This document shows positions 369 to 37,672 of a stretch of DNA of 64,000 nt, piece by piece; within the stretch, counting starts at the first letter, position 1; each line of letters starts with the position of its first letter. The DNA is from an uncultured Methanoregulaceae archaeon. GTDB lineage: Archaea; Halobacteriota; Methanomicrobia; Methanomicrobiales; Methanospirillaceae. A program made the position numbers and the translations under genes. The notes under the pieces were generated by a model that worked only from the letters and a program-made list of their open reading frames with translations, did no database searches and was not told the origin of the DNA. The DNA lies in the NCBI GenBank assembly GCA_963717525.1, contig OY970343.1:1696001-1760000 (forward strand), given 5' to 3'.

Positions 369-447
369 GGTGCTGTTACATCTGCGGTTGGTGGCAGATA
401 TTACAAGTCTTAAGAATTTGTGTATCGACAGTAGACACACCAGAACC
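369..447. repeat. 79-bp inverted-repeat element, copy A (IS6-like ends, MITE-like)
   Basis: ggtgctgttacatctgcggttg...gtagacacaccagaacc; 60/79 ungapped identity to the copy at 11435 (hand count). Confidence 0.85.
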
Positions 448-471
448 GAAAAATAAAAAAGAGGATTTTAT

Positions 472-888
472 TTATATGGCTTTTTCGTGATTTGCATAGT
501 GAAGATCTTTACAATAATCATGTAAGTATCCGCCACAATACTTACACGTGCACACGACCTCATTTGTCAGATTATCAATAAGGCGCGTGTTGGATGATCC
601 CGTATGTTTGAGTAATTTATCCCCGCATTCAACGCAGCATATATCTTTTTCAGATATTCCTCCCTCCTCGAGATTCTTGAGATAACGACTGTATGCGGAA
701 CTCCCCAGTCCATCTTTATGTTTCTCGTTGTGCACTGCGGCACAAGCATCGTGAATAAACCCTCCACAAAACGGGCATATCCTTCTCTCTTTTTTGGATG
801 AACCAGGTTTATGGGGTACTATTTTACCGCCACATTCACCACAAAAAGCATTCAACCCGCTATCTGGCATCAACGTTTCTCTTGTCAT
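472..888 (-). CDS. Cys/His-rich protein with two tandem putative binuclear Zn-finger (B-box/AN1-like) motifs
   Basis: Two copies of C-x2-C-xn-C-x2-CGG-x2-H-x2-C-x3-H-x3-H. Confidence 0.7.
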   Translation of the reverse strand: MTRETLMPDSGLNAFCGECGGKIVPHKPGSSKKERRICPFCGGFIHDACAAVHNEKHKDGLGSSAYSRYLKNLEEGGISEKDICCVECGDKLLKHTGSSNTRLIDNLTNEVVCTCKYCGGYLHDYCKDLHYANHEKAI

Positions 889-935
889 ACAATCGGGACT
901 TTGTATTTTCTTAAGACATATAGTTTATTAAAACA

Positions 936-1015
936 GGGTCTGTTAACCTGTTAGGGAATTATCAAATTTCCAATGCCTGATAAACTATCCGATCCCACGT
1001 CAGGTTAACAGAACC
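936..1015. repeat. 80-bp inverted-repeat element, copy B (same termini, different core)
   Basis: gggtctgttaacctg...caggttaacagaacc, near-perfect 15-bp terminal IR. Confidence 0.75.
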
Positions 1016-1080
1016 AAAAAAAAGCAACCTTAAAATATCCCATGAGCAGAATTCACGTATAAACCCTGAGGTAGATTAGT

Positions 1081-1695
1081 ATGCCTGAAACAACTGCTTC
1101 TCCGCAACCTTCTGCAGATGTGGAATTGGAAAAGGAACTGGAAGAATTACGTTGGTTTACCAATCCCGGACTCCATCCCTGGTGGGTCGTCCTTCTGTGG
1201 GGGATCCTTGCCGTTATCATCGGTATTATGTTCCTCGCATCTCCGGGCATTACAACGCTCGTCTTTGCCACATTCCTTGGTGCCTACTGGCTTGTCAGTG
1301 GTATCTTCTCGCTCATCAGTCTTGCCTTCGACAGGAGCCATATGGGATGGAAGATTTTTCTGGCAGTTCTCAACCTCATCGCGGGTCTCATCATCCTCTG
1401 TTACCCGCTGGTCTCCACCATCTTCCTGCTTCTGTTCTTTGTGGTCTTCATCGGGGTATGGGCGCTCTTTATCGGTGGTGCTCACCTCTATCATGCCTTT
1501 ACCTTTAAGGATGCGGGAAACGGCATCCTGGGAATCATCAGTATTATTTTCGGTCTCCTGCTCCTTCTCTACCCGCTGGTCTCAGCCGCGCTCGTTCCTT
1601 TCATTGCCGGGATCTTCGCTATTGTAATTGGTATCATTGCCATGGTGGCCTCGTTCAAGGTAAAGGGGACACCCTCCCCTCAGGCGACTGCCTGA
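1081..1695 (+). CDS. HdeD/DUF308 family membrane protein
   Basis: About six TM segments with repeated 'GILAVIIG...P' pattern typical of HdeD/DUF308. Confidence 0.85.
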   Translation: MPETTASPQPSADVELEKELEELRWFTNPGLHPWWVVLLWGILAVIIGIMFLASPGITTLVFATFLGAYWLVSGIFSLISLAFDRSHMGWKIFLAVLNLIAGLIILCYPLVSTIFLLLFFVVFIGVWALFIGGAHLYHAFTFKDAGNGILGIISIIFGLLLLLYPLVSAALVPFIAGIFAIVIGIIAMVASFKVKGTPSPQATA

Positions 1696-1884
1696 TACTC
1701 ATCTTTTTTTATTGCCTGTTCATAGCATGGGACGATTGCCAGACAGGGAAAAAACTGGATTCTACGATCAGGGTTCAGAAAACCCGCCTCTTTCCCCACC
1801 CTCTATTTTTGGTTCAGTCACGGCTAAGTATCCCCGCTCCCAATCCTCTTTCACCCAACGGCGCCCGAGGGTGGAGTAAAAGAA

Positions 1885-2388
1885 ATGACTGACTTTGTTC
1901 AGACAAGCGAAATCAAGCATGCGGTTCGGAAACTTTCGAACCCGATCGAGGATGCGGTGACGTTCAATAACGTCGTCCAGTCCGTGATCGCTGCGAACCC
2001 CTTCGGGTGTGTATCGTATATGACCGCCGGCGAGAACCATCCCGCCGTGGAAAAGACCAGGGAAGCGTATACCGCGAAGATCGTCTACCAGGACAACGAC
2101 GCCAGGATCTGCGGCACGGGCACGCACCGGTTCATGAGCCTCGGCGGCTATAACAACGGCTCAGCCGCCATTCTCGCAAATGCTGCCCTCTCAACCGCAC
2201 ACGGGGGCATAGCCGCCCACGACTTCGACAGCGACACCTGGTCCGCGAACCTCAAGTGTCACGATCCCAACGGCGAGATCTACAATGTCGTGCTCTCCCG
2301 GGACCAGGTTATCCTGACATCCTATGAATCCGAGGATATCCGCACAAAGGTTGAGACCTGGGCCGACAGCGTGCCGGAACTGGCCTGA
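1885..2388 (+). CDS. Hypothetical protein (167 aa), first gene of a 4-gene module
   Basis: Clean ORF with GGAG upstream and strong codon bias; no recognisable motif. Confidence 0.8.
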   Translation: MTDFVQTSEIKHAVRKLSNPIEDAVTFNNVVQSVIAANPFGCVSYMTAGENHPAVEKTREAYTAKIVYQDNDARICGTGTHRFMSLGGYNNGSAAILANAALSTAHGGIAAHDFDSDTWSANLKCHDPNGEIYNVVLSRDQVILTSYESEDIRTKVETWADSVPELA

Positions 2389-2398
2389 ATTATCGACG

Positions 2399-2447
2399 AA
2401 ACGGCAGGAGACCGGGACCTTTCCGGTCAACCCTCTCCCTGCCGTTT
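2399..2447 (+). other. Intergenic nested stem-loop followed by T-run (terminator/attenuator or RNA-stability element)
   Basis: aaacggcagg (2399-2408) pairs with cctgccgttt (2438-2447); inner gaccgg/ccggtc stem. Confidence 0.55.
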
Positions 2448-2466
2448 TTCGCGGAGGGCCTCAAGA

Positions 2467-2628
2467 ATGGATATCGAATTTTCAATTATTGCCGGGCTCG
2501 TCCTCCCACTCTATCCCCTGCTGTTTGCCATCTACCAGAAAATTGGCAGGTACGATGAGATCGTCGAGGAGTTCAAGAAACTCCGGGACGAGCACCAGAA
2601 TTACCGGGAGAAGTACCATGGAACGTAA
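2467..2628 (+). CDS. Small membrane-anchored coiled-coil protein (53 aa; not in ORF track)
   Basis: MDIEFSIIAGLVLPLYPLLFAIYQKIGRYDEIVEEFKKLRDEHQNYREKYHGT; GGAGG upstream; overlaps next ATG. Confidence 0.7.
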   Translation: MDIEFSIIAGLVLPLYPLLFAIYQKIGRYDEIVEEFKKLRDEHQNYREKYHGT

Positions 2629-3118
2629 AATTGATACTGCACCAGAGGAGGACCGGGCACCTCGTCCGGTCGCCCGGGTCACCGGCCTGTACCGGGGCAC
2701 ATTCGCCGGGCTTGTCCCGCTCACCGTAAAAACCCCGCTGACACCGGACCAGGTGCGCCGGAACCCGATCTTCTACGAACTCGACCTGAACCACGAGTAT
2801 GCGGACGAGAACCTCATTATCGACCTCGTGTACGACAACCTTTCACCGCGCCGGCTGCCGGACCTTTTCCGGGGAACCGACATCCCCCGGGGCATCCGGT
2901 TCTGGCCGGACTGGTTTACCATCCCGCCCTATGACGAGATGCACGACCTCGACGGCCGCCGGGTATATCCCAGAGCGCCCGGCATCCACACCGTGCAGGT
3001 CCGGACTGCCTGCCGGAAGTTTGCACAGATAGGAAGGAGCCGGGATTTCTCACCGGAGAATGGCGGCTCCACGAGCCCGGTCTTCGAGATTATGATCGCC
3101 GGTGACGATCATGTTTGA
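2618..3118 (+). CDS. Hypothetical protein (166 aa from MERKID...)
   Basis: 3' part of ORF 2324..3118; overlaps both neighbours, consistent with translational coupling. Confidence 0.7.
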   Translation: MERKIDTAPEEDRAPRPVARVTGLYRGTFAGLVPLTVKTPLTPDQVRRNPIFYELDLNHEYADENLIIDLVYDNLSPRRLPDLFRGTDIPRGIRFWPDWFTIPPYDEMHDLDGRRVYPRAPGIHTVQVRTACRKFAQIGRSRDFSPENGGSTSPVFEIMIAGDDHV

Positions 3119-3695
3119 GAACGAGACACAGACCCGGTGCGCCATCTGCGGCACCGGGGTCCTCCTCGGCGCAATCTTTCTTTTTGCACATTTCCCGGTC
3201 ATCCTGCTGGTGGTGCCGGTCGCGGTGCTCTTCCTCGGTCTTGTTGCCGACCCGGAGGAGACCCACGCGGTCTGGTACGGGATGCTTTCCACGATCGGCA
3301 TCTTTGACCTGTCCGCACTGACGGATGCAGAGCGGTCGTACTACGCTGAGAAACGGCATTATTTCTGGTTCGGCGAGGTCGCGATGGCCTCAGTGCTGGC
3401 CGATATGTTTGCCATCCCGGCCGGGATCTTCCTTGCGGGCCGGGCGGAGATGACCCTTGCATTCATCGGAGCGACGGTCCTCTTCCTGCCGCTCTTCGTG
3501 TTCCTGCCGAAGCTGATCCAGAGAGCGATGAAAGCGGACGTGGATGCCGCGATCAAGACATTCGGCAAGAACGAACAGGTGAAAAAGGTATTCTGGACTA
3601 TGTTCGTCGCTATGGCCGGACTGATGCTCGCCCGGGTCCTGGATCCGGCAACGGCGCAGCAGGTCGTGGGGGTGATCATGGGAATGGGTGGGTAA
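3111..3695 (+). CDS. Hypothetical multi-pass membrane protein
   Basis: Several hydrophobic segments; followed by a poly-T tract at about 3699-3708. Confidence 0.75.
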   Translation: MFENETQTRCAICGTGVLLGAIFLFAHFPVILLVVPVAVLFLGLVADPEETHAVWYGMLSTIGIFDLSALTDAERSYYAEKRHYFWFGEVAMASVLADMFAIPAGIFLAGRAEMTLAFIGATVLFLPLFVFLPKLIQRAMKADVDAAIKTFGKNEQVKKVFWTMFVAMAGLMLARVLDPATAQQVVGVIMGMGG

Positions 3696-3754
3696 ATTCT
3701 TTTTTTTTACACGATTCCCCTTTTCATCGTTACGAAAACTTTACCGATGAGGGG

Positions 3755-4228
3755 TTATGAAAAATCTGTTTTCATCTGGTGACCCGCTTCACCAGATTGA
3801 GAGAAGCTCGAGTTCATACAGTATCTCTGGTTAGTCGGCGGCGGGCCGTCATTGAAAACATGCCCCAGGTGAGCTTCGCACCGGGCGCACAGGACTTCTA
3901 CGCGGTGCATTCCGAACTTATGGTCTTCTGATGTTGTCACATTCTCCTTGGCTATCGGCGCTGAGAAACTTGGCCAGCCCGTCCCGGACTCAAACTTGTC
4001 CCGGGAATCAAAGAGATCTGTCCCGCAGCACGCACACTGGAAGATGCCGTCATCATGGGTGTCATGATATGCACCGGTGAATGCGGGTTCTGTACCTTGT
4101 CTGCGTGCGACTTCAAAGATCTGGGCAGGGAGAATCGATCTCCACTCTTCTTCAGTCTTCTTAATGGGCTCGACAAATTCAACCTTTCCGGTCGCAGCTG
4201 AGTAAATGGGGATTTTTCCGTTTGTCAT
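3755..4228 (-). CDS. msrB: Peptide-methionine (R)-S-oxide reductase MsrB (apparent 1-bp frameshift near C-term)
   Basis: GTEPAFTG, CACC, KFESGTGWPSF, HLGHVFNDGP, RYCMNS motifs; the alternative frame continues ...NSASLNLVKRVTR*. Confidence 0.95.
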   Translation of the reverse strand: MTNGKIPIYSAATGKVEFVEPIKKTEEEWRSILPAQIFEVARRQGTEPAFTGAYHDTHDDGIFQCACCGTDLFDSRDKFESGTGWPSFSAPIAKENVTTSEDHKFGMHRVEVLCARCEAHLGHVFNDGPPPTNQRYCMNSSFSQSGEAGHQMKTDFS

Positions 4229-4331
4229 AATCGCTCCAGCATGAATCTTGTAAGGGTAGCACCGGGAGATAAATCCTGTGGTGGCTATTCGCCAGTTCCC
4301 GGTGAAAGTACAGGCTCCCGGTGACCGCCTT

Positions 4332-5105
4332 TCACTTCCCGGGGATAATTTTCAGCAGGGTCTCCATTTTCTTTCGGTCAAACCCGATGATGAACTCGTT
4401 CCCGATCTGGACGACCGGTGATCCGATATGACCAGTTTTCTCAATGACGAGGTTTCTAGCCTCTTCATCCGCAGCCATATTAATCTCAACAAATTTTACA
4501 TTCTTACTGGTGAGATACTCTTTAACCGCTCGGCAACCGGAGCATCCCGGTGTTGCATAGACCCGCACCTCTTGTGATTCGTCCCACGTTTTGTCAATGA
4601 AACCTTCGCGGCCGGAAAGGATCTTGTATTCCTTGTATCGTCCCGGATTTTTCCTGTCGTAATCCTGGTGGTAATCCTCAGCAGGGTAGAATGTTGTGTA
4701 TTGCCGGATTTCCGTTGCCACCGGTTTGTTGAATTTGCCGGAATCATTCAGCTTTTTCTTCGAATTTTCCGCGATTCGCTTCTGCTCCTCATCGTGGTAG
4801 AAAATGGCTGTATGGTACTGGGATCCCTTGTCAGCAAACTGGCCATCGGAATCAGTAGGGTCGATCTGGCGCCAGAATACATCGAGGAGTTTCTCGTATG
4901 TGACTTTCTCCGGGTTGTACGTTACCTGCACTGCCTCAAGGTATCCTGTCGAACCTGACGAGACTTCATCGTAGGTCGGGTTCGGTTTCGTGCCGCCGGC
5001 ATACCCGGCGACCGAGTCAATTACTCCATCTGTCATCCTGAACGGGGGCTGCATACACCAGAAGCAGCCACCGGCAAATGTTGCCTTCATCTGTTTGTTG
5101 TCCAT
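4332..5105 (-). CDS. msrA: MsrA fused to a C-terminal glutaredoxin/NrdH-like domain
   Basis: FAGGCFWC active site, AEDYHQDY; C-terminal YATPGCSGC...GSPVV...IIGFD. Confidence 0.95.
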   Translation of the reverse strand: MDNKQMKATFAGGCFWCMQPPFRMTDGVIDSVAGYAGGTKPNPTYDEVSSGSTGYLEAVQVTYNPEKVTYEKLLDVFWRQIDPTDSDGQFADKGSQYHTAIFYHDEEQKRIAENSKKKLNDSGKFNKPVATEIRQYTTFYPAEDYHQDYDRKNPGRYKEYKILSGREGFIDKTWDESQEVRVYATPGCSGCRAVKEYLTSKNVKFVEINMAADEEARNLVIEKTGHIGSPVVQIGNEFIIGFDRKKMETLLKIIPGK

Positions 5106-5205
5106 GATATCATCCTCGATTATTAACCAAATGTTAATGCAAATGCCAGGAATCCCGGCAGCGGAATGTCCAGCTCCAGCATATGTTCTCCATAGTCAGT
5201 CCCTG

Positions 5206-5847
5206 CTATGTCGCCGTCGTATTAGTGGTGTTGGTCTGTGTCTCCAGTACCTCAGCCCGCTCTTTCAGAAGATCCTGAATCTTCGCCTCGGTCGTATCAT
5301 AGTTTCCCGCACCGAAATTGTGGTAGACGATGAAACCATTGACATCGATAAGGTAATCCGCAGGCCAGTACTCATTGCCGTAAGATCCCCATGTTGCGTA
5401 ATCATTGTCGAGCACGACCGGGTATTTTATACCATATTTCTCTACAGCCTGCCGGACATTGCTGATGTCATGCTCGAACGGAGTTTCCGGGGTATGGATA
5501 CCGATGATCTCAAGACCCTGGTCATGGTACTTGTCGTACCACGTGTTCAGGTACGGGATCTCCATTTGGCAATCGATGCAGTTGAACGTCCAGAAGTGAA
5601 CGAGGATAACTTTCTTCCCGATCAGGCTCCCGATAGTGATGTTGTCAACATTCACGAATCCCGACGGTTCGGCGATTTCCTGTGCGGACGGGTATATCAT
5701 AGCCTCCGCCGGATTGCTTGAAATGTTTACCTCTGGAATGACCGGCGTACCGGTGTACGATTTTGAAGGAGTGAACCGCCCGAAGAATACGATGGCCGCT
5801 GCAATGAAAATCAGCGCTGCGATGAGTGCAATGGTTCGTTCTTCCAT
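5206..5847 (-). CDS. Membrane-anchored TlpA/DipZ-type redoxin
   Basis: N-terminal TM, FWTFNCIDC, GIHTPE, YWPA motifs; paralog of the upstream gene's N-terminal domain. Confidence 0.9.
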   Translation of the reverse strand: MEERTIALIAALIFIAAAIVFFGRFTPSKSYTGTPVIPEVNISSNPAEAMIYPSAQEIAEPSGFVNVDNITIGSLIGKKVILVHFWTFNCIDCQMEIPYLNTWYDKYHDQGLEIIGIHTPETPFEHDISNVRQAVEKYGIKYPVVLDNDYATWGSYGNEYWPADYLIDVNGFIVYHNFGAGNYDTTEAKIQDLLKERAEVLETQTNTTNTTAT

Positions 5848-5849
5848 GA

Positions 5850-6950
5850 TTATCCAAAGGTAAACGTATACGCCTGCAGTCCCGGCTGTGGGATGTCCAG
5901 CTCCAGCGTGTGCACTCCGTAGTCCGTACCTGCTACGAGCTGGTACAGCCGCTCGTCACTGATCGTTGCAACCCCCCCGGTGACATCCGGCCCACCGATA
6001 GCAACAGCAGGTTTGCCGTCAACCACGACGCTTACTTTCGTGGCATTGCTTGCGCTCGCGACGAAATAGACGTTCTTTGCATGGTACTGGAAGACAACGC
6101 TATTATTTCCTGTTGTCTCGGCATACTGGTCGCTAAAGTTCCAGGTCCCTCCCAGGTAAAGTGTATTCGAGGAGATCGAACCGGGCAGCACCAGTGTCTG
6201 CATGCCGTTCACCGATTGGTTTCCATTCCCCAGGTACTGGTTCTGTGCAGATCCAAAGTAGGTCTCCGGACTGCTGACCTTAGAGAAATCCACACTGACG
6301 GCATTCGCAGGTACCGATGTCGTGTTGGAGATGTTGACCTGGATCCCGAGTGCCTGTGCCCGCTCCCGTAAGAGATTCTGGATCTCCATTTCCGTTGTGT
6401 TGTAGTTACCCTCACCAATGTTGCGGTCGACAATAAATCCATCAATGTCGATAAGGTAGTCCTCAGGCCAGTACTGGTTCCCGTAGGAATCCCATGTCGC
6501 GTAATTGTTGTCGAGAACGACCGGATATTTGATACCGAATTTCTGGACCGCCATCCGGACATTGTTGATATCGTGCTCGAACTGGAACTCCGGAGTATGG
6601 ACTCCTATAATCTCAAGGCCCTGGTCATGGTATTCTGAGTACCATGTGTTCAGGTACGGGATCGTGCGTTCGCAGTTGATGCAGCTGTATGTCCAGAAAT
6701 CCACCAGGATGACATCTTTGCCTATCAGGCTCCCGATAGTGATGTTATCCACATTCACGAACCCTGAAGGATCTGCGATCTCTTTTGCGTACGGGTAGAG
6801 TTTCGCCTTTTCAGCATTGATTGCAGTCCGGTTACCCGGTGCCACCGAAGTTCCTGTATAGGATCTGTTCGGACTGAACTGTTGGACGTACACAATAGTC
6901 CCTGCTATCAGGATCAACACGATTATCAGTACAATTGTCCTTTTTTCCAT
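5850..6950 (-). CDS. DipZ-like membrane-anchored redoxin with C-terminal beta domain
   Basis: FWTYSCINC, GVHTPEF, SPETYFG, terminal 'YTFTFG' typical of DipZ. Confidence 0.9.
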   Translation of the reverse strand: MEKRTIVLIIVLILIAGTIVYVQQFSPNRSYTGTSVAPGNRTAINAEKAKLYPYAKEIADPSGFVNVDNITIGSLIGKDVILVDFWTYSCINCERTIPYLNTWYSEYHDQGLEIIGVHTPEFQFEHDINNVRMAVQKFGIKYPVVLDNNYATWDSYGNQYWPEDYLIDIDGFIVDRNIGEGNYNTTEMEIQNLLRERAQALGIQVNISNTTSVPANAVSVDFSKVSSPETYFGSAQNQYLGNGNQSVNGMQTLVLPGSISSNTLYLGGTWNFSDQYAETTGNNSVVFQYHAKNVYFVASASNATKVSVVVDGKPAVAIGGPDVTGGVATISDERLYQLVAGTDYGVHTLELDIPQPGLQAYTFTFG

Positions 6951-6954
6951 CAGG

Positions 6955-8773: not shown

Positions 8774-8906
8774 ACTCTCCTCTCGTGTTTGATTGGAATG
8801 CTTATGACCATGCGGGTCATTTTTCTGTATCAAAGATACTTTGTGTATTTTTATGACCCTTATCTATATATTAACGACCCTGCAATGGATACCCGGTGAA
8901 AAAATT

Positions 8907-10416: not shown

Positions 10417-10584
10417 TCCTCTCCATTTTTCATAATCATACGATTGTGATGTGCCACTCCGGTTGGTGTGTCTACTACGGGATCAAAAGACTACAAAATT
10501 TTTGTAAGGGTTGCCCGGCTGGGTGGAGAGAGGCATTTGATAAGGCAGCCCTCTAAAAAAATCAGGACACCCTTGAGCACGCTT

Positions 10585-11434: not shown

Positions 11435-11513
11435 GATGCTGTTGCATCTACGGTTGATGGCAGATCTTTCACTTCGCGATAATTTGAGTATCAGCCACAG
11501 ACGCACCAGAACC
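11435..11513. repeat. 79-bp inverted-repeat element, copy C
   Basis: gatgctgttgcatctacggttgat...acagacgcaccagaacc. Confidence 0.85.
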
Positions 11514-11580
11514 CAATAATGGAAAATTAACAATCATTTTTAGCGACTGTTTTATGAGAAGAAAGATACTATGACTCTTC

Positions 11581-12279
11581 GTGGCGAATGAAATGGACTA
11601 TGGAACCATGATCGGGAATTCTTTTACCTATGTAAAAGAGGGTATAATCGACAAAGTGAACACGTGGCTGCTCTTGATTATCGCCACACTTATTCTGGCA
11701 ATACCCCTGATGGGGTATATCATGAGCGTATACCGGGGTACCAAACCTGCACCCGAAGTGGATGGCTGGAGCACGTTATTTGTTGATGGAATTCTCCTGT
11801 TGATTGTCGGATTTATCTATGCGATCCCCATTCTTATATTAGAATTCCTTGTGATTGGTGCAACGTTTGTAACCCAAATGGGGAGTAACCCAACCGCAGC
11901 AATGACAGGTCTTGCCGGTGCCGGGATCCTTGCAGTTATCCTGATCATAGTCGCAATCATCATTGCCATTGTCGCGCCCATCGGAATTATCCGCTTTGCA
12001 CGAACCGGGAGCTTCGGCGAGGCTTTTAATTTTGGTGAAATTTTTGCCACCATAAAAAAGATCGGATGGCTCTCGTATATCCTTGCACTCATTATCGTTG
12101 CCATCGTAGTCGGTATCCCGGTTCTCATTCTCTGGGCCATCCTTATGGCACTGATCATTGCCCTGCCAATTGTCGGACTGGTTATTGCAGTAATTATCTT
12201 CCTCATAGTCCTCCCGATCATCGAGGTCTTCGAGGCACGGTTTCTTACTCAGGTGTACCAGACTGCCGGAACCACATAA
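11581..12279 (+). CDS. DUF4013 domain membrane protein
   Basis: LMGY...PAPEVDGW..LFVDG; RFARTGSFGEAFNFGEI. Confidence 0.9.
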   Translation: MANEMDYGTMIGNSFTYVKEGIIDKVNTWLLLIIATLILAIPLMGYIMSVYRGTKPAPEVDGWSTLFVDGILLLIVGFIYAIPILILEFLVIGATFVTQMGSNPTAAMTGLAGAGILAVILIIVAIIIAIVAPIGIIRFARTGSFGEAFNFGEIFATIKKIGWLSYILALIIVAIVVGIPVLILWAILMALIIALPIVGLVIAVIIFLIVLPIIEVFEARFLTQVYQTAGTT

Positions 12280-12304
12280 TCCCTTTTTAGATTATTCAAA
12301 GACA

Positions 12305-12396
12305 GGTGCTGTTGCGTTGTCGGGATCTTTAGATAGTCAATTTTGCTGGATCACGACGAAATCATTTTCATAAAGTCCCGTTAAAGCAACAGAACC
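12305..12396. repeat. 92-bp inverted-repeat element, copy D (same termini, different core)
   Basis: ggtgctgttgc...gcaacagaacc with inner cgggatcttt/aaagtcccg stem. Confidence 0.75.
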
Positions 12397-14753: not shown

Positions 14754-15342
14754 TCCGTAGCGTGCGCCGGAGGGATTCCGGCCGGGGTTTCGATCGAGGA
14801 GATAATGGTAATCACCTGCAGAGGATTCAGACTCCCTTTTAATAGATTTTTGTCTGAGTATCAGATTTTATCACATATTTTGAAAATGAACGAAATCTAT
14901 AACTGTCCCTTTATCGTTCCAACGGGACTAAAGCGCTGTAAAGGTACAGGAAACACCGGGGGGCAATCGGGCAGTAAACGCCGGAGAGAACCGGTGAGAT
15001 AGAGCGGTGCACGATATGCGAAAAATCTCGTCAGGGTAAAAAAACCGGCGGCGGGGAAATCACCTGCCACATGAGCCTATGCACTTGGGAGAACCGGGGA
15101 AAAGCACCGGCGGGTAGATGGACGAAAAAAGTACCGATCGTTCTCAAGGGCGGCAGTGCAGCAGGTGGTGGGGGTGATTACCGGGATGGGAGGATAAATT
15201 TTTTTAAAGCACCTCAAAGTAAAATCTTCTAAAATGTGTCTTTTTTTCGTTAACGTCTGAAAAGTGCGCATAAAAAAAAGATTTTAATGTATTTTTCTGG
15301 TTCAGGCATGGCCCATTGTTGTCAGGAGTGGTAAAATGAGGA

Positions 15343-22484: not shown

Positions 22485-22563
22485 GGTTCTGTTGCACCCG
22501 CTGTTGACAGGTAAATTTATCCGAAGTGAAAAATCCGCTACCCACCGCAGATGCAACAGCACC
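22485..22563. repeat. 79-bp inverted-repeat element, copy E (core reversed relative to A/C)
   Basis: ggttctgttgca...ccgcagatgcaacagcacc; reverse complement is 57/79 identical to copy C. Confidence 0.85.
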
Positions 22564-22613
22564 CCCTGGAATAAGGAGATTCATATGGCATGCGTGGATA
22601 TTGTTGATATGTC

Positions 22614-23270
22614 GTGCTTCCGATCATTGCAGCTATGCTGCCTCTTACCAGCCTCTCCACCCCGGGCCCGCTCCTGCAGTACGGGATATGGGTATACCTG
22701 CTGGTCTTCATCGTCATAACGCTCGCTTCAACTATCGTCGGCGGACTGATTCCCGACAACACGTTCCTGTTCCTTACCGGGGCGGTAGCCATTGGCAATG
22801 GGTTATCTATACTGTGGCTGTTCGTCATAGCGGTCGGTGGCGGGTTTGCGGGCTATGAGATCAACTACTGGAGCGGGAGGATTTTCGGGCTGGCCATCTG
22901 CCGGGGGATATGCCCGACAGTCCTCAACAACAGCAATGTCCAAAAGGCCCTCAATGTGATGGACCGGTTCGGTCTGGCCACTATGGTCTTTTCCCGATTT
23001 ATGCCAGTCCTGAACCTGCCATCATTTATCGCGGGAGTGAACGTGATGGAGTACCGCAGGTACTTTGGGTTTAATCTCATCAGTTCGATACTCTGGTGTG
23101 GGTCTCTCCTGATGCTTGGGTATTATATCGGGAGCATATCATTTGTAAGCGATTTCCTCAACAACCTCATGGACCTTTTCCTAGTCATCCTGGTAGTGGC
23201 GATAATCATCGCGATAGTTATGTTTGCCCGTGATTACGTGAAACGAAAAGGCAGCTGTTCTCCTGAATAA
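22614..23270 (+). CDS. DedA family membrane protein (divergent)
   Basis: IPDNTFLFLTGA, INYWSGR, SRFMP, AG..M.Y.RY...N. Confidence 0.85.
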   Translation: MLPIIAAMLPLTSLSTPGPLLQYGIWVYLLVFIVITLASTIVGGLIPDNTFLFLTGAVAIGNGLSILWLFVIAVGGGFAGYEINYWSGRIFGLAICRGICPTVLNNSNVQKALNVMDRFGLATMVFSRFMPVLNLPSFIAGVNVMEYRRYFGFNLISSILWCGSLLMLGYYIGSISFVSDFLNNLMDLFLVILVVAIIIAIVMFARDYVKRKGSCSPE

Positions 23271-23281
23271 AAAAAGTCCGG

Positions 23282-23360
23282 TGTTCTGGTGCATTGGCGG
23301 GTGGTGACGACTTTTTCACCTCATTAAAATAATCAGGTAAACCTTCAATGTAACAGCACC
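23282..23360. repeat. 79-bp inverted-repeat element, copy F
   Basis: tgttctggtgcattggcgggtgg...tttttcacctcattaaaata...aatgtaacagcacc; directly abuts the usp stop codon. Confidence 0.8.
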
Positions 23361-25607: not shown

Positions 25608-25872
25608 GAGATCGGGCTACCCCCGGAGTTATACGGGCATTCTCCTGAACCTATAATTTACAGGATAAGATCTTTTCAGACAATAATGTTTTTCAGAATT
25701 CCTGCAGAAGATCGATTGCATGACTCCATCAAGGTTGACTATTCAAACGTCACGCAGACGCGTCAGTGCCTAATCATATCGCAACCGGTTTGGTATGAGG
25801 CCGGCCATAATAGATCGTATCTCAATTTCCCCAATCCGTACATTTATACGATCATGGATGAGAATGGCTTCC

Positions 25873-28183: not shown

Positions 28184-28262
28184 CCTGCTGAGGCGTTTAT
28201 GGTTGGCAACCAGTAATTCAGCTCGTTAAAATATTCACATCAAAAGTGAACGCACCAGCACC
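28184..28262. repeat. 79-bp element, degenerate copy G
   Basis: cctgctgaggcgtttatggttgg...ttaaaata...aacgcaccagcacc in the same 79-bp register. Confidence 0.7.
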
Positions 28263-28885: not shown

Positions 28886-29102
28886 GATCGGAACTATGGC
28901 AGGAGTTGTTGATAAGGTGTTTGATCTGGCAAAATACCAAAAGTCAGGGCCAGGGTGGGACGTCGGGAAACTTCTGCAGGTTTCTCCGTTTGTGAAAATG
29001 TATAATTCACCTGATTTCTCTGTGAGGTCCCGTCAACCTGTCGGAACCCTCCAAAGATACCTTTAAACTCCGCCTGTGCAAACATCAGCGAAGAGGGAAA
29101 TC

Positions 29103-29663: not shown

Positions 29664-29748
29664 GAGCGGGATTATCCCCCCATTTCCGTAATCACCCCCA
29701 CCACCTGCCCTGCGACCTTGTACAGGGCTAAAACCGGAAAAGGATCAC

Positions 29749-30205: not shown

Positions 30206-30216
30206 GGATGGACTCC

Positions 30217-31248
30217 ATGGCAGCACAACAATGCGCATGCACCTGCTCACCGCCGGTTCCCCGGGCGGCACAGGAATTCATGTACGCGAGCCCTGCGATC
30301 ACCTTTGCCGACCGGTGGGATCATTTCCTCGCCCGGTGGGGCGTAAACCGGATGGGCCATGTAGTACAGCCCGGGCTGTACAAACTGGGCCTTGCCATCC
30401 CGGAATCACCGGTCTTTGCGTCCGCGAACTACACGCTGAGCTTTGATGCGCTCCGTTCGGCGCTTGCCGGCATCGACGCGTATATCCTCGTGCTGGACAC
30501 CAGAGGTATCAACATCTGGTGCGCCGCGGGCAAAGGCACGTTCGGCACCGATGAACTGGTCCGGCGCATTGATGCGACCGGGCTCTCCGGCATCGTATCG
30601 CACCGCAGGATCATCCTCCCCCAGCTCGGGGCGCCGGGCGTTTCTGCGCATGAAGTATCACGCAGGTCCGGCTTCTCGGTCGAGTACAGCCCAGTCCGGG
30701 CCCGGGATCTGCCTGCCTACCTCGCCACGCACACGGCAACAAGGGAGATGCGTACCGTCCGGTTTACCCTTGCCGACCGGCTCGTCCTTGCTCCCGTGGA
30801 ACTGGTGCATATCCTCCTGCCAATGATAGCAGCGGCAGTTGTGCTGTACTTCCTCGCCGGCCCGGTCGCAGCGCTTGCAGCGGTTTCCGCAGTCTTTGCA
30901 GGAACCATCCTCTTCCCGGCCCTGCTGCCGGTCATCCCAACCCGGGACTTTTCCACGAAAGGATTTATCCTCGGCGCAATTGTCGCGATCCCGTTTGCGG
31001 CCACTTATGCCTTGACCCCCGGACTTTCCGGCATTGGACTGATCATCACCGTGCTTGTCCCGCTTCTGATCATGCCGGCCGTGACAGCATACCTTGCCCT
31101 CAACTTCACAGGTTCGACTACGTTCACGTCACGTACTGGTGTAAAAAAGGAGATCTTCCGGTACGTGCCGGTGATGGTGATAATGGCTGGCGCCGGGACC
31201 CTCCTCGGGATCGCACTGGGCGTCCTCCATCTCATGGGAGTGGCCTGA
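30217..31248 (+). CDS. hgcA: Mercury methylation corrinoid protein HgcA
   Basis: Cap-helix NIWCAAGKGTFG, ANYTLSFD, LPQLGA, C-terminal TM domain with NFTGSTTFTS.TGV. Confidence 0.97.
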   Translation: MAAQQCACTCSPPVPRAAQEFMYASPAITFADRWDHFLARWGVNRMGHVVQPGLYKLGLAIPESPVFASANYTLSFDALRSALAGIDAYILVLDTRGINIWCAAGKGTFGTDELVRRIDATGLSGIVSHRRIILPQLGAPGVSAHEVSRRSGFSVEYSPVRARDLPAYLATHTATREMRTVRFTLADRLVLAPVELVHILLPMIAAAVVLYFLAGPVAALAAVSAVFAGTILFPALLPVIPTRDFSTKGFILGAIVAIPFAATYALTPGLSGIGLIITVLVPLLIMPAVTAYLALNFTGSTTFTSRTGVKKEIFRYVPVMVIMAGAGTLLGIALGVLHLMGVA

Positions 31249-31622
31249 TGTTTGATTCCTACGCGAAGAACACGCTCCGGTATTTCCCGGAAAAGTGCAT
31301 CAACTGCCGGCGCTGCACGCAGGTCTGCCCCCATGGCGTTTTCGCCGAAGGGGAAGACCGGGCTGAACTCGTCCGCCCTTCAGGATGCATGGAGTGCGGC
31401 GCATGTGCTCTCAACTGTCCGGTACAGGCAATTGAGGTGCAGAGCGGTGTCGGGTGCGCATGGGCCATGATCGGTGCTGCACTCAGGGGAAAGGACATGG
31501 ACAGCTGCGAATGCAGCTGCGGGGGGCCGGAGAGTTCCTGCTGCGGCGGCGAAACAAAAGAAGAACCGTGTTCGTGCGGGACTGAGGAAGGGGGTGTAAT
31601 TGCGGACCATGAAATCAGATGA
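31248..31622 (+). CDS. hgcB: Mercury methylation ferredoxin HgcB with extended Cys-rich tail
   Basis: CINCRRCTQVCPH, CMECGACALNCP, GVGCA; tail CECSC...CC...CSC. Confidence 0.95.
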   Translation: MFDSYAKNTLRYFPEKCINCRRCTQVCPHGVFAEGEDRAELVRPSGCMECGACALNCPVQAIEVQSGVGCAWAMIGAALRGKDMDSCECSCGGPESSCCGGETKEEPCSCGTEEGGVIADHEIR

Positions 31623-32041
31623 AGCATATGCCACATTTATGAGAGGTTTCTCCTGCTCGGCGGCAGGTACTCAGCAGTTTTGCTGAAGAACTCGGTCTTG
31701 ACAAAGAAACGGCGTACAAAATTGCCTGCGGGTTTGGCTCCGGGCTTTCCCGGACCGATAATATCTGCGGTGCGGTGTCCGGGGCAATTATGGTCATCGG
31801 GCTCAAATACGGCAAGGTAATGCCGAAGGATAACGCCGCAAGGGATAAAACTCAGATGCTCGTGCAGCAGTTCCTCCAGGAATTTACCGTAAAGAACGGC
31901 TCGGTCAACTGCACAGACCTGCTGGGATATAACCTTGGCAATCAGGAAGAATACGTCACGGCACGCGACAAGAAACTCTTTGTCACAAAATGCCCGGCGC
32001 TTGTGCGGGATGCCACGGATATTCTCGAGAAAATACTTTGA
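31609..32041 (+). CDS. C-GCAxxG-C-C family putative redox protein (frameshift near 31666)
   Basis: GFSCSAA..., GFGSG, ICGAVSGA, GSVNCTDLLG, KC..LV. Confidence 0.85.
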
Positions 32042-32061
32042 GTGGACACCGGTGAACGCAT

Positions 32062-33141
32062 ATGGATAACCCCACGAGGCATCTCTCCGTAATCGATCGG
32101 TACCTCACGCTCTGGATCTTCCTTGCGATGGCAGCGGGAATTGCCATCGGGTACTTCTCGCCCGCAGTGCCCGCAATGATCACCGGCCTCTCGGTCGGGA
32201 CGACATCGATCCCCATCGCGATCGGGCTCATCCTCATGATGTACCCGCCGCTCGCAAAAGTGCGGTACGAAGAGCTCCACAACGTTTTCAGGGACACGAA
32301 GGTCCTCGGCCTGTCGCTTGTCCAGAACTGGATCGTCGGCCCGGTCCTGATGTTTGTCCTTGCCGTCGTTTTTCTCCGCGACCAACCGTTCCTGATGTAC
32401 GGTCTGATCCTGGTCGGGATTGCCCGTTGCATCGCGATGGTGATTGTCTGGAACGATCTCGCGCTCGGGGATTGCGAGTACTGCGCCGCCATCGTGGGCC
32501 TGAACTCGATCTTCCAGGTATTCTTTTACTCCGTCTATGCATGGTTCTTCATCACGTACCTGCCTCCCATGCTCGGCATTGGGGCCGGTTCTGCGGTTTC
32601 CATCACGATAACCCAGATCGCCGGGAGCGTCTTTGTCTACCTTGGCATCCCGTTCATAGCGGGGATGGTCACCCGGTATGCCCTGCTCCGCGTGAAGTCG
32701 AAAGCATGGTACGAGCAGGTTTTCATCCCGAAGATCTCGCCGGTTACCCTTATCGCCCTGCTCTTTACGATCATAGTGATGTTCTCCCTGAAGGGCAGTT
32801 ATATCGTCAATGTACCGTTCGATGTCGTGCGGGTCGCGATCCCGCTGCTCTGCTACTTCGTCATCATGTTCTTTGCGAGCTTCTGGATGGCCTACCGTCT
32901 CGGGGTCGATTACCAGAAGTCCGCCACTCTCTCATTTACCGCAGCGTCCAATAATTTCGAGCTTGCGATTGCAGTTGCCGTCGCAGTCTTTGGCATCGAA
33001 TCACTGGCGGCATTTGCCACCGTGATAGGGCCGCTCGTAGAAGTGCCGGTGCTTATTGGCCTTGTGAACGTTGCGCTCTGGATTAAGGAGAAATGGTATG
33101 GCAATCAGGAAAACAATACGTGCAGCCCTTCGCTGCGATGA
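32062..33141 (+). CDS. acr3: Acr3 family arsenite efflux pump
   Basis: [49 protein letters not shown]. Confidence 0.97.
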
Positions 33142-33159
33142 AGAGAGAATGGTGACATC

Positions 33160-33579
33160 ATGAAAAAGAAGGTCCTGTTTATCTGCACCCACAATTCCGC
33201 CCGGTCCCAGATGGCGGAAGGGTACATGAACGCAAAATATGGAGGCCGTTACGAGGTATTCAGCGGCGGGACCGAACCGGGGCAGGTGCACCCGCTGGCA
33301 ATCGCCGTGATGAAAGAGATCGGTATCGATATCTCCGGACACCGGTCGAAACTCATCGATGAGTTCTTCGGGAAGGGTATTGAGACCGTGGTCACGGTCT
33401 GCGATTCCGCACAGAAAGCATGCCCGTTCTTCCCGGGGGCAACAGAGGAGATCCACCAGGGTTTCCCTGATCCTGCTGCGTTCACCGGGACCGATGAGGA
33501 GATCCGGGCCGGGTTTCGTCGCGTGAGGGATGAGATTACCCCGTGGATTGACAAAACATTTGGAAGCGAGTCTCCATAA
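33160..33579 (+). CDS. arsC: Arsenate reductase ArsC (LMW-PTP type)
   Basis: VLFICTHNSARSQMAEG, VTVCD..CPFFPG, DPA, FRRVRDEI. Confidence 0.95.
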   Translation: MKKKVLFICTHNSARSQMAEGYMNAKYGGRYEVFSGGTEPGQVHPLAIAVMKEIGIDISGHRSKLIDEFFGKGIETVVTVCDSAQKACPFFPGATEEIHQGFPDPAAFTGTDEEIRAGFRRVRDEITPWIDKTFGSESP

Positions 33580-33757
33580 AGCCCGGCGTTTGCCCGTGGT
33601 ATCATCCATGATGCAGGCCGGCCATATTTTTTCCGCACCCGTTCCGGGTAACGGATGGGGAAGATGATTCCGGCTGCGAGGACGACATAGGTAAGCACCT
33701 GTGCGATGCTCCCGGCCGGCCCTGGTCTCTCGAACGTGATGGCGGCCAGCTACTCAG

Positions 33758-34663
33758 TTACCGGGACCCTTTTCTCGTACTTCCAAAGAATAGGAGTACC
33801 AGAGCAAATCCGATTATTGTTATTGAAGACGTAAAGCCCGGGATTGATGGCGGTTGGCTTTCAGCATAAATGGTGGTATTGAAAAGACTGGTGCCGCTAA
33901 AATGCCATTCCGCCTTGTTGCCATTTACCGTTGTCGCGGTGGTATTGACAATGTTTCCCGGCATCTCAAGGTAATAATCCACCGTGATCCCGGAAAGCAT
34001 CGTCTGCATCATTTCCTGCTCTTCTGCTGCGCTGAACAACGGGGCGAACGGCGTCGGGGTTACTTCAACCTGTTCGTAATTCTGAAGCGTTGTATTGTAT
34101 ACCCACTTCGTCGGTATTGGGGTAGGAATTACTATAATCTCCTGGTAGCCCTGCAAAGTCGCATTCCACACTACCATCGGCGTAGGAGCCGGCGTTGGGA
34201 CCGGCATCGCAAACGTTGGTGCGGTTCCTATCGCTGCAAAAGCCTGCGATGCCTGTGGTGAATTAAAGGAATTATCCTGGAAAACGATATTATCGCCATC
34301 TTTCTGGATGCTTATTTTGGAATCCGCAGGGGGGGAATATGTATCCGTCCTGGTAAGCGAGATCGTTACCGTCTTGTTCTGGGTATTTACTATTTCATTG
34401 TAGACTACATTCTCTGTGCCAAGAGACTTTGAGAGATTTGCTTCGATGGCATCTTTTACCGAATCAAACCCCTGGTGTTGGACTCCCATTTCGAGAAGAT
34501 CGTACGTCTGACAATCCATGGTCAGGTCATATTCGGCACTGGAAATCTGTGCATCCTTGTTAACGGTGAATTTATTGGTGATCGCAAGGTTCAGGCACCC
34601 GGCCGTGAGGACAAAAACGAGGATGATACACACAAGGATAAAAATAATTTTCATTTTTTTCAT
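33758..34663 (-). CDS. Secreted/lipoprotein with PGF-CTERM (LppM-like)
   Basis: Lipobox-like LTAGC; Pro/Thr repeats; IPGF-TM-basic tail. Confidence 0.75.
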   Translation of the reverse strand: MKKMKIIFILVCIILVFVLTAGCLNLAITNKFTVNKDAQISSAEYDLTMDCQTYDLLEMGVQHQGFDSVKDAIEANLSKSLGTENVVYNEIVNTQNKTVTISLTRTDTYSPPADSKISIQKDGDNIVFQDNSFNSPQASQAFAAIGTAPTFAMPVPTPAPTPMVVWNATLQGYQEIIVIPTPIPTKWVYNTTLQNYEQVEVTPTPFAPLFSAAEEQEMMQTMLSGITVDYYLEMPGNIVNTTATTVNGNKAEWHFSGTSLFNTTIYAESQPPSIPGFTSSITIIGFALVLLFFGSTRKGSR

Positions 34664-34949
34664 AAAATAATAATTTATTTAAGCCAAAATAAACATTCCT
34701 AAATGAATGTCCGGGGAGCATCGTCCCTGCCGGGATACTGTGCCGGATGCCGGTGTGACCTCATATCCGGCAGGCCCAGAAGCCCACGCGGCGTTTGAGT
34801 GTCCTCTCCCTTACCGGTCATACGGTCACTGCCACCGATACTTCCACAAGAAATACCAGTCCATACAAAATTTGAGCCATTTGTGGACAGGGGGGTGATC
34901 CACCCCCGCAAACGCACCAGAACCGTTTACCTCCTGCATATGCAGGATG

Positions 34950-36170
34950 TTAACCGGGAGCTCCGGATGCGGAATTCATTTCCATCTTCATCATCGTGGT
35001 CGTGTACGGGACCCACACGGAAAGCGTGAAATGCAGTTCATGACCGTCCGGGCCAAAATCCCCGGGTATCAGGTAGCCGCCATAACACGCTTCCCACCCG
35101 GTCTGCATCCATGAGGGGCGGCCGGTGGGGGTCTCGCACGGATCGAATCCTGCAACTTTCGTGAAGGGTCCGTAGGGAGCATCCGCAGAATAGAGAAGGA
35201 AGAGGTCCTGCCTGTAATCCTTGAAGAAAAGTAAGTATGTGCTGAGCGGAGCATCATAGATCAGGGATAATTCTCCCACCCTAAGATCTTCGAAACCGGG
35301 TATGGGTTCGGCCTGGGAGATGTCAGATGTCCAGTGCGGAAAACTATCAGGGCCATAGCCGGTCAGGTAGTGGTATTGTGCCGGGTCCCCGATGCCAGAG
35401 GGGAGCACATACGCCAGGTACACCGGGGAATCCCGGTATTTTCCTGACATGGCCATGAATACCGCAGGGGTTCCGTCAGGAAGAGCGCCCAGCACGGGTG
35501 CAGTATTGACATGTACCTGGTCTGCCCCCCAGTTTGCTGTTTGTGTAAACGAACCATCAGTTTCCTGCCGGAAAAGAACACCATACCCGGAGACCGACGG
35601 GTCGCTCGCGGTTCCCCAATGCGTCACACGCATTGCATACAGGTAGATGGTGCCGTCGAGCGTTATCGCCCCGGCCGGGACCGTAGATTCGTCCACACCT
35701 GCTATCCTCTTCGAAGTCAGGGGCTGGAAGTACGATGCCCCCGAGGTCACCCAGGAGAAACGGGAGCAGCTGAACGGGATGCTGGATTGTATCACCGAGC
35801 TTCCTCCGGCAGCACCACCGGGACCCGCCATTGAGGTTGAGGATGTCCCCATGGTATCCCCGAATATGAGCCATTGGGAAGAACCCTCCACTATGGGTAC
35901 TCCAAGATCTGCACCGGCAATCCCAAGAGACCTGGGGGGATTTTCAAAGAGATTACATTCAAAGATGGGGCCTTGTGCTAGGGAGATCTGCGATGTCTGC
36001 CCGGGGTTTGAAGACTGGTTTGAAGTGGATTTCGGATTGTTAGAATTTTGTTGTGTCTGCCCCGGTGGCAATTGAGGCGTTGTGGCAGGATTTGAACCTG
36101 AAGGTGATGGCGTAACGCAGCCGGCAAGAATAATGAGCAGCGCAATGAACAGAAAACCCAGGTACCTCAT
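34950..36170 (-). CDS. DUF4185-like lipoprotein (beta-propeller)
   Basis: LAGC lipobox; GADLGVP...IFGDT, VGELS..Y, PYGPF, YGGY, SVW.PY motifs. Confidence 0.75.
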   Translation of the reverse strand: MRYLGFLFIALLIILAGCVTPSPSGSNPATTPQLPPGQTQQNSNNPKSTSNQSSNPGQTSQISLAQGPIFECNLFENPPRSLGIAGADLGVPIVEGSSQWLIFGDTMGTSSTSMAGPGGAAGGSSVIQSSIPFSCSRFSWVTSGASYFQPLTSKRIAGVDESTVPAGAITLDGTIYLYAMRVTHWGTASDPSVSGYGVLFRQETDGSFTQTANWGADQVHVNTAPVLGALPDGTPAVFMAMSGKYRDSPVYLAYVLPSGIGDPAQYHYLTGYGPDSFPHWTSDISQAEPIPGFEDLRVGELSLIYDAPLSTYLLFFKDYRQDLFLLYSADAPYGPFTKVAGFDPCETPTGRPSWMQTGWEACYGGYLIPGDFGPDGHELHFTLSVWVPYTTTMMKMEMNSASGAPG

Positions 36171-36373
36171 GATACTTATTTCTCCTCAGGTATAGCAACT
36201 CTCTAAAACCCTGCATCGTCATAACCCTTTCCCCTGCATGAAGGGAATGAAACGGGGAATAGCAGGACGACGACCGCAGGAGAATCAGGATCCCCTTGTA
36301 CCAGCTCCCCCGGCTGTGGATGAAAAATGCACGCCGACAGGGGTTCTCTCTGTGCCCCTGTTTGTGGTTGTAC

Positions 36374-36829
36374 TCAATGGGTAAAGATCATCGAATCCGG
36401 CAGGGCACCATAGTGGGCAAGTACTTCCTTGAGCGTCTTTGAGGCAAGCATCTCTGCCATAATGATAGACCCCAGGGAAACCCCGCGTTCCTTTGCGAGA
36501 GGGTCTTCGGGATCGACGTTACCCAGTTCACCCGACATGGCCTGGTCGAACACCTTTTTTATAATGTGGTTCTGGACAAAGGTCAGTTCGGTCATAAATT
36601 CCTGGCCAGGCATTCTGGCTGCAGCAAAGGATAAACGGATCGTATCTTCGAGCTGGTGGGACCCCCCTTCCGAAGAAAGTCTTAGAATACAGGTTATCTC
36701 GTAGTTCTTCATTTCCTCCTTTTTGAGCGCAGAATGTTCGATACCGAGCATCAACACCCGTTTTACGGGAACCAGGTGGATATGGTGATCCACGTCAAGC
36801 ATTGCAATACTTTCTTCTGCCACAGCCAT
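36374..36829 (-). CDS. Hypothetical protein
   Basis: AGGAG upstream; clean 151-aa ORF. Confidence 0.65.
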   Translation of the reverse strand: MAVAEESIAMLDVDHHIHLVPVKRVLMLGIEHSALKKEEMKNYEITCILRLSSEGGSHQLEDTIRLSFAAARMPGQEFMTELTFVQNHIIKKVFDQAMSGELGNVDPEDPLAKERGVSLGSIIMAEMLASKTLKEVLAHYGALPDSMIFTH

Positions 36830-36976
36830 ACTCCTTTACTGGATGATTCTTCAACCCGGGATAAAGTGTTTGTGCCTTTTGATTGATGTATCCGAAGATG
36901 AGGCATGAGAAAAGGGTTCCAACGAATCCTGCACACTTCTCCGTGGATGGTTCGCAAAAAAGATTTTTATGGGAGG

Positions 36977-37168
36977 TTATGTGCGTTTTTTGGCATTTAT
37001 TCTTCTTGTGATGTAACCGGCGACGCGGTTCCGGACACGCTTGCTGTCGATAACTGCTGACGATGCCAGCTGTTTCTTGTTCTCATCGAAGTTGTTCGTA
37101 AAGTTCTCCCGCTGCTTCGCCAGAAGTGCGGTACCGAGATTTTTAATGTATGACGGTTTGATTCCCAT
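36977..37168 (-). CDS. rps17e: 30S ribosomal protein S17e
   Basis: MGIKPSYIK...F..NK...SKRVRNRVAGYITR. Confidence 0.97.
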   Translation of the reverse strand: MGIKPSYIKNLGTALLAKQRENFTNNFDENKKQLASSAVIDSKRVRNRVAGYITRRINAKKRT

Positions 37169-37354
37169 GGACAATCCCTCAGGGTTGTTGTTCTCTCAAC
37201 GCGACGAGAAGGGATAATGCTATGGTTTGCGGAAACGCCGGGCCGGATCCTGCCCTGACGTCGGGATTGAATTTTTCTTCATGCCCCAGGGGCACCATGA
37301 TGCTGACCTTTTCCCCCGGTTCGGACACTGGGGATAATGATTTTTCGAGAGTGA

Positions 37355-37546
37355 TCAATCAGCCGTTGTTCCTTTCGGCGTTCCCCTTTTCGGAGATGAA
37401 CATAATTCTTTTGCGATACTGATTACGGCGCAATGATTGTCAAAAAACCATGCACACTCTTTCCCGTTGCACGGGACTTCGATAAGCAATCCCTCGGTAT
37501 TGACTGCCGTTCCGAATTTCAGCGGACAAGACTTCTGTGGTGGCAT
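37355..37546 (-). CDS. Small Cys-rich hypothetical protein
   Basis: CP...C....CAW.....CAV..IA. Confidence 0.55.
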   Translation of the reverse strand: MPPQKSCPLKFGTAVNTEGLLIEVPCNGKECAWFFDNHCAVISIAKELCSSPKRGTPKGTTAD

Positions 37547-37593
37547 AAAGAAGAATCGGTTTTGACCTGATGAACTTTTCTTATGTCCCGGAA

Positions 37594-37672
37594 AAAGGGT
37601 TTGCGTCAGCGGTTGGTAACTCCTGTCTCACTTCATTACGATTATTCAATCAACCGCCAACGCACCAGTATT
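37594..37672. repeat. 79-bp element, degenerate copy H (eroded termini)
   Basis: ttgcgtcagcggttggt...tcacttcatta...atcaaccgccaacgcaccag in the same register. Confidence 0.65.

Follow-up and report, generated by a model that had tools for sequence, protein, structure and literature searches.

Short inverted-repeat mini-elements in a Methanoregulaceae genome with ends resembling those of an IS6-like cargo transposon

A 64,000-nucleotide stretch of DNA from an uncultured Methanoregulaceae archaeon (contig OY970343.1; the window) contains short intergenic inverted repeats of fixed length, here called minis. Judging by their sequence, the minis very probably derive from a cargo transposon with a SWIM-DDE transposase, which is IS6-like and for which strict IS6 membership is not claimed. 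On balance we favor the reading that they are non-autonomous elements moved in trans by IS26-type reactions, both replicative and end-targeted, which would leave footprint-free joints around captured genes. The minis act like MITEs (miniature transposable elements with inverted-repeat ends) and like the boundaries of IS26 arrays, yet they lack the target-site duplication (TSD) of the former and the direct-repeat arrangement of the latter. Below, G000 is the host genome (2.29 Mb), other G numbers are other genomes, and L numbers are loci.

All six 79-bp copies reported by a sequence-only reading of the window were recovered. In coordinate order, with two further elements lettered last, they are A (369..447, + strand), B (11435..11513, +), C (22485..22563, −), D (23282..23360, +), E (28184..28262, +), F (37594..37672, +), G (936..1015, −), and H (12305..12396, −). 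Copies A to F align without gaps, with pairwise identities of 43–60/79, and were assigned to family I by this alignment and by profile. The identities of 60/79 for A/B and 57/79 for B/C equal those given earlier as A/C and C/E, if all eight elements were then lettered in order. Profiles place G in an 80-bp family (III) and H in a 92-bp family (IV). The right end of E and its flank are conserved in G028, and the left end of F is degenerate. A search of the window for the end pattern gave 11 matches where 0.33 would be expected, a number not attained in any of 100 shuffles. Positions 71–2580, which include A and G, show zero differences in contigs from a separate study, so the repeats are not an assembly artefact; contig joints close to B and G have short sides and were left out of account.

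A genome scan with iterated profiles, as the sequence-only reading had proposed, gave many further copies. At E < 0.01 there are 63 elements in the genome, and the best match in the reversed genome has an E of 0.22. They fall into family I (79 bp, 27 copies), families II and IIb (79–80 bp, 8 and 4 copies), family III (80 bp, 4 copies), and family IV (∼92 bp, 20 copies). Among 57 held-out family I copies, 42 are exactly 79 bp and 54 lie within 78–80 bp, despite a mean pairwise identity of only 65%. The copies are clustered in low-GC accessory regions, with a median neighbor distance of 1.4 kb versus 12 kb for random intergenic placement and with flanking genes of 49% GC versus 56%. They are not enriched near heat-shock promoters (10% within 25 kb versus 12% expected) or near tRNAs. 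A plasmid collection gave two partial chance matches only, and viral contigs gave no two-ended mini pattern and one chance match in a phage tail gene.

All copies are intergenic and many lie 40 bp or less from a stop codon, as might be expected of host regulatory palindromes, terminators, or structured RNA, and arm complementarity is 0.575 compared with 0.557 in half-swapped controls (p 0.03). This explanation nevertheless has hardly any probability in our judgment. The suggested check for stem covariation was negative, with RNAalifold returning 0 pairs and no consensus fold for 22 copies; Rfam contains no match to the repeats; single-strand DNA folds of the minis are weak (−7 to −16 kcal/mol); and no strand or orientation bias relative to genes was found. 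The distribution is also patchy. The family I model matches 49 of 108 genus genomes (1–30 matches each, where both strands may count) and 2 of 24 genomes from other families in the order, leaving 59 genus genomes in which it was not found, and the fixation at orthologous positions across the genus that would have pointed to regulatory motifs was not seen. Orthologous genes are without minis in 16/17 and 12/13 relatives' loci. The structured RNA and terminator readings were rejected on these tests.

The claim that no cognate transposase lies in the window holds for the 42 open reading frames (ORFs) scanned, and a transposase with matching ends was found in the same genome outside the window. 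The PF13610 profile detects two genes in the genome. Tn1 (G000:C1:2070743–2077067; L012 2744–9068) and Tn2 (G000:C1:1834962–1838924; L013 4963–8925) both terminate in inverted repeats of 25 bp and are flanked by an exact TSD of 8 bp. In each case the TATA box of a thermosome promoter begins 13 bp downstream of the element, and Tn1 carries genes for an HNH nuclease and an N6/N4 methylase among its cargo. The transposases, of 394 and 398 residues, consist of SWIM, zinc-ribbon, and DDE parts, and the 394-residue frame of Tn1 is open. Of the DDE residues, Asp-220 and Glu-323 are invariant and Asp-284 is nearly so. The match to PF13610 lies above its cut-off, and the NCBIfam IS6 model scores 113.6 bits against a cut-off of 125. 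An alignment-based structure model (predicted local distance difference test score 91) matches generic DDE folds only, the best being ISCth4 and integrases at a TM-score of ∼0.35. An IS1595 transposase (L014) was considered as a partner and rejected, as no mini-type ends were seen at its locus.

Each mini family corresponds to one class of full-size ends, with 21–24 of 24 bases identical. The right end of family I matches Tn1 at 21/24, family II matches a full-size end at 21/24, family IIb an L033 end at 22/24, and family IV L030 at 24/24. The left end of family III matches L255, from a distant transposase clade, at 23/24. Families II, IIb, and III go with a transposase clade ∼37% identical to the Tn1 enzyme. 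The terminal repeats start with GG and have a G at position 7, a feature of IS6-family repeats according to PMC6807381. Minis and transposase also tend to occur together: of the other genus genomes, 20 of the 22 that have a transposase hit (fragments counted) contain minis, versus 28 of the 85 that have none, and the Fisher p of 1e-6 is overstated because related genomes are not independent. The origin part of the earlier "IS6-derived MITE" claim thus stands, given the additional copies, the transposon with matching ends and 8-bp TSD, and the patchy spread. The partner, however, is no plain IS6 element of ∼800 bp with a single ORF of 213–254 residues: full-size elements are 2.3–11 kb long and carry cargo beside the 394–398-residue transposase, and their ends are roughly 62 bp with a second internal repeat.

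The full-size elements insert at a fixed distance from a TATA box. We examined 61 loci with inward-facing ends (related loci together with Tn1 and Tn2), counting a TSD where there was at most one mismatch; 53 have a TSD, which is exact in 49, and tandem pile-ups share one. On one side of the element a TATA box occupies outward positions 14–21. Insertions occur in both orientations (17 and 15). There are 40 distinct TSD sites, and 34 of them either belong to thermosome promoters or have a CTAAC-type operator at positions 31–33. Genes at these sites include hsp20, a Phr-like repressor, clpB, grpE, and cdc48. The operator resembles the HSR1 motif CTAAC-N5-GTTAG that is described in part of PMC9133787. 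Relatives that carry the partner are mostly labelled Methanoregula or Methanoregulaceae. Among loci with distant transposases from other families of the phylum (L240–L259), 14 of 20 are TSD-bounded, 12 of these at 35–38% identity, and 12 of the 14 adjoin a heat-shock gene with the same geometry. The yeast retrotransposon Ty3 inserts at TFIIIB-bound promoters and is alike in its fixed distance from the TATA box, its lack of a cut-site consensus, and its tandem piling; the partner differs as an archaeal DNA transposon that targets heat-shock regulon promoters.

Three other sites in the genome bear on the partner. A transposase-free element at the clpB promoter (G000:C1:520460–526280), with a TSD of one mismatch, holds LigD-type end-joining genes between two minis. 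A solo full-size end lies at a heat-shock repressor promoter (G000:C1:414303), and a sequence near cdc48 (G000:C1:536020–536294) resembles part of the transposon interior and is probably a decayed transposase.

In contrast to the full-size elements, the minis have no TSD, not even where a copy is well preserved, and in this respect they depart from the earlier MITE claim. Flank comparison agrees with the earlier observation that 8-bp TSDs are absent around the window copies. A match of at least 6/8 was found for 0 of 45 genome copies with recognizable ends, 0 of 74 two-ended copies (which overlap the 45), and 0 of 59 held-out copies; one weak copy, L094, reached 6/8, and among the 28 copies in which both ends score high there was no such case. 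We consider it unlikely that the minis are ordinary old MITEs, inserted singly with 8-bp TSDs that have since eroded, with gene bracketing a by-product of tolerated intergenic accessory sites. The low mean identity is consistent with such an age, as is copy L094, and part of PMC10969869 states that the direct repeats of MITEs wane with age. Identity between flanks exceeds chance slightly in two of the sets (p 0.02–0.03) and is at chance in the held-out set, a small excess that also weighs against footprint-free joints. However, flanks that are conserved at 85–95% between genomes are without TSDs as well, which makes age alone a poor explanation, and the narrow length range of the held-out copies also argues against the explanation. 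The old-MITE explanation also does not account for family swaps at one junction or for the nested ends described below.

Several arrangements suggest that the transposase acts on mini ends. Loci L137 and L138 are 99.96% identical over 4454 bp, a transposon, and the slot after an 8-bp spacer differs, being occupied by a family I mini at one locus and by a full-size element at the other. Gaps between facing ends are exactly 8 bp in 29 of 34 cases, two of which involve minis, and at L177 two minis face each other across 8 bp. Eight ends are cut after 18–19 bp by the next element, other offsets occurring once or twice each. Of 189 mini ends, 10 have a TATA box starting at outward position 14, versus a background of 0.6 per offset; eight of these are independent, copy A included. 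For copy A, the TATA-like box at 348..355 (− strand) occupies outward positions 14–21 from the left end, as at the targets of the full-size transposon, and precedes a 217-residue ORF just beyond the window. In held-out ends the box is at position 14 in 4 of 117 versus a background of 0.3. The promoters at mini TATA sites mostly have no CTAAC-type operator.

Minis frequently enclose single genes. Among intervals of less than 4 kb between minis, 14 of 35 hold exactly one gene, as is the case for three segments of the window: A to G (448..935, −; a 138-residue ORF at 472–888 without a Pfam match), B to H (11514..12304, +; a DUF4013 gene), and C to D (22564..23281, +; a VTT/DedA-domain gene, ORF 22614–23270). 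G113 has the A–G segment at 90% identity, with a family IV mini at the junction of A and with the neighbor inverted. For the DUF4013 gene, 16 of 17 relatives' loci have no adjoining mini, and 14 of these share one neighborhood; the gene is detached and flanked by minis in G025 and in the host genome, which has two copies. The second copy is 96% identical, and the match begins one base after B. One segment is met at the same base by three kinds of element: a mini of family I, an end of another type, and an end of the full-size type. The same junction with a different element is seen in at least five segments. An 11.8-kb block common to G000 and G088 ends 18 bp inside a family I mini in G000, and in G088 it ends within a mini that has a family I tip and a family IV body. 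The ends of shared blocks coincide with a mini in 12 of 32 cases versus ∼15% expected (p 0.0015), in regions that were chosen for holding minis.

Gene-bearing segments between minis were also encountered elsewhere. At L068 and L082 (G015 and G028) a tandem 819-bp unit contains one mini and one gene, with copies 81% alike, and is shaped like an amplified translocatable unit. In the host genome, low-GC SIR2-STAND and TIR-STAND genes, which are likely anti-phage, lie between mini-type elements (G000:C1:1286763–1289966 and 1122780–1125293). A BLAST search for mini-bracketed G000 segments as cargo in TSD-bounded transposons of other genomes gave no match near a mini.

The cassette-like layout raises the question of a selected exchange site, and the sequence-only reading had offered a fixed-length recombination site as its second option. 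This partly fits the behavior of the minis, but the likely enzyme is the transposase and not a site-specific recombinase. In a maintained cassette system, comparable to an integron but based on a DDE enzyme, selection would keep the minis as dedicated exchange sites, where gene cassettes would be excised, inverted, and inserted by the transposase. The common 79–80-bp length of four families with different ends and transposase clades ∼37% identical would be expected of it, as would the alignment of some cores in register (II/III, p < 0.002), the flush junction swaps, the 819-bp mini-plus-gene unit, and the defence-type and stress genes between minis. The events appear imprecise, however, because of the junction offsets and because 3 of 126 mini flanks cut a gene; there is no orientation rule, and circles were not observed. 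We regard such a system as distinctly unlikely. A broader scheme, a two-tier gene-capture system in methanogens run by one TATA-measuring transposase family, is offered tentatively and is in our view improbable: full-size elements would dock cargo before heat-shock promoters, and minis would be maintained exchange sites that clip whole transcription units at TATA boxes and shuffle them as cassettes.

It is very improbable that a tyrosine recombinase from the neighboring genomic islands uses the minis as attC-, res-, or dif-like sites. Nine tyrosine integrase matches are present in the genome, and an integrase gene is found no more than 25 kb away for 38% of copies versus 18% expected, which is not significant (p 0.087); the layout and the missing TSD would also suit it. 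Integron attC sites carry the core pair RYYYAAC...GTTRRRY, lie downstream of co-oriented genes, and form arrays of short imperfect palindromes between single accessory genes, to which the mini arrays are alike. The minis, however, have the attC core pair in 0 of 63 copies, no common orientation and no strand bias to genes, DDE-type ends, and promoters partly included in their segments, and the attC reading was rejected. Moreover, mini ends match transposon ends family by family and track the transposase.

For the favored movement in trans by IS26-type reactions, we infer every step of the following course. The transposase would bind the mini ends and place a copy of the mini at another site, whose position it would occasionally measure from a TATA box, in the manner of the full-size element. 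Host recombination resolves IS6 cointegrates into clean, TSD-flanked insertions, but a repeat of 79–92 bp probably does not offer it enough length, so each copy would keep one old and one new flank. Long elements would thus resolve cleanly, whereas minis would stay as joints between DNAs of different origin. Intramolecular events would delete or invert adjacent DNA, and ends attacking other ends could give the 8-bp-spaced stacks, the 18–19-bp nested ends, and the family swaps at one junction. Selection would keep those events that spare a whole gene, and arrays of bracketed accessory genes would accumulate. PMC7986276 describes precedents for IS6 elements, among them TSD loss and arrays: transposition is replicative and cointegrates need RecA for resolution, intramolecular events delete or invert adjacent DNA with loss of the target repeats, and IS26 can target resident copies without duplication.

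A number of observations weigh against this reading. A fresh copy-in should leave an outer TSD around end pairs that involve a mini, which was found in 0 of 125, and split TSD halves, which are not enriched (5 pairs versus 2.3 expected, maximum 8). Homologous flank pairs are offset and not flush in 11 of 20 cases, and only 6 of 35 neighboring pairs have the same family and orientation. In the held-out ends the TATA signal is equally high at position 16 (4 more), and in 28 genomes that carry minis no transposase was detected. The search for empty sites gave no clean example, orthologous genes without minis sitting in other contexts, and no movement was directly observed. Several copies are stably inherited at orthologous sites, and most events are therefore old. 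IS26 targeting is reported in part of PMC7986276 to need identical ends, and the swaps seen here cross families. Together, the lack of composite TSDs, the mixing of families, and the stable inheritance of several copies speak against a process that is active at present and identical to that of IS26.

Comparison with known systems places the minis between categories. With IS6/IS26 and their MITEs they share the GG...G7 terminal repeats, an autonomous element with an 8-bp target repeat, a PF13610 DDE domain in its transposase, and the existence of gene-less derivatives. They differ in being 79–92 bp long, none with a TSD, and the partner differs in its N-terminal SWIM and zinc-ribbon parts, its cargo, its long ends with the second internal repeat, and its promoter targeting. 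As with MITEs in general, the minis are short, non-coding, and multicopy, with terminal inverted repeats and ends that match an autonomous element; the flanking duplication is absent. The Sulfolobus element SM1, a MITE of ∼79–80 bp, is similar in size, in its archaeal host, and as a non-autonomous element with terminal inverted repeats, but it has a different partner insertion sequence and carries target repeats. IS6 MITEs in ISfinder (MITEBth2, MITEHarch3) have lengths of 227 and 336 bp, according to portions of PMC7986276 and PMC6807381. The pseudo-compound transposons, translocatable units, and targeted conservative integration of IS26, as covered in PMC7986276, are alike in their element-bounded gene arrays without TSDs, in deletions and inversions at the ends, and in end-to-end targeting. 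Pseudo-compound transposons have two near-identical direct copies around the cargo, unlike the boundary minis, which are without transposase, of several families, in both orientations, and ∼65% alike. REP/REPIN sequences go with a HUH (Y1) TnpA-REP partner and a conserved hairpin; for the minis no consensus fold emerged.

The window contains further end-like and neighboring features. Four half copies had been proposed. Two were found, a solo end at 34901..34924 (−) and a half family IV element at 25715..25770 (+) that terminates a 1.7-kb segment duplicated elsewhere in the genome; 22390–22398 is a match of 9–10 bp only, and no profile detected 10464–10476. A solo family II-like end lies at 40717..40738 (−), and a weak solo end at 29025..29048 (−) scores 15.7, where the control gave 2 matches of at least 15. 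Copy F is separated by 54 bp from the 3′ end of a surplus thermosome copy (37727–39286) that is 83% identical to the thermosome beside Tn1. Relative to the latter, it has a frame change near 37922, which may be an assembly indel because other runs show single-base differences in the assembly. The sole transposase among the scanned ORFs of the window (43988–44920) is rve-type with HTH domains, and its flanks are without mini-type ends. A 37-bp motif occurs three times at 84–89% identity (3659–3695, 15161–15197, and 29672–29708), two copies direct and one inverted.

The surprising feature of these repeats is the combination of footprint-free, fixed-length clips of several families with a partner that measures from the TATA box. 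Neither the repeats nor promoter-anchored, protein-ruled targeting by a linked transposon was found described for archaea in the literature searched, a search whose scope excluded subscription journals, ISfinder itself, and supplements. The minis provide a natural experiment on how IS26-type arrays form without target duplications, and a minimal 79-bp end pair together with a TATA-measuring transposase would be a candidate for delivering genes to chosen sites in archaea. For the organisms themselves, the system represents a route by which methanogens of peat and sediment may build up accessory islands that contain genes for stress and signalling as well as defence-type genes.

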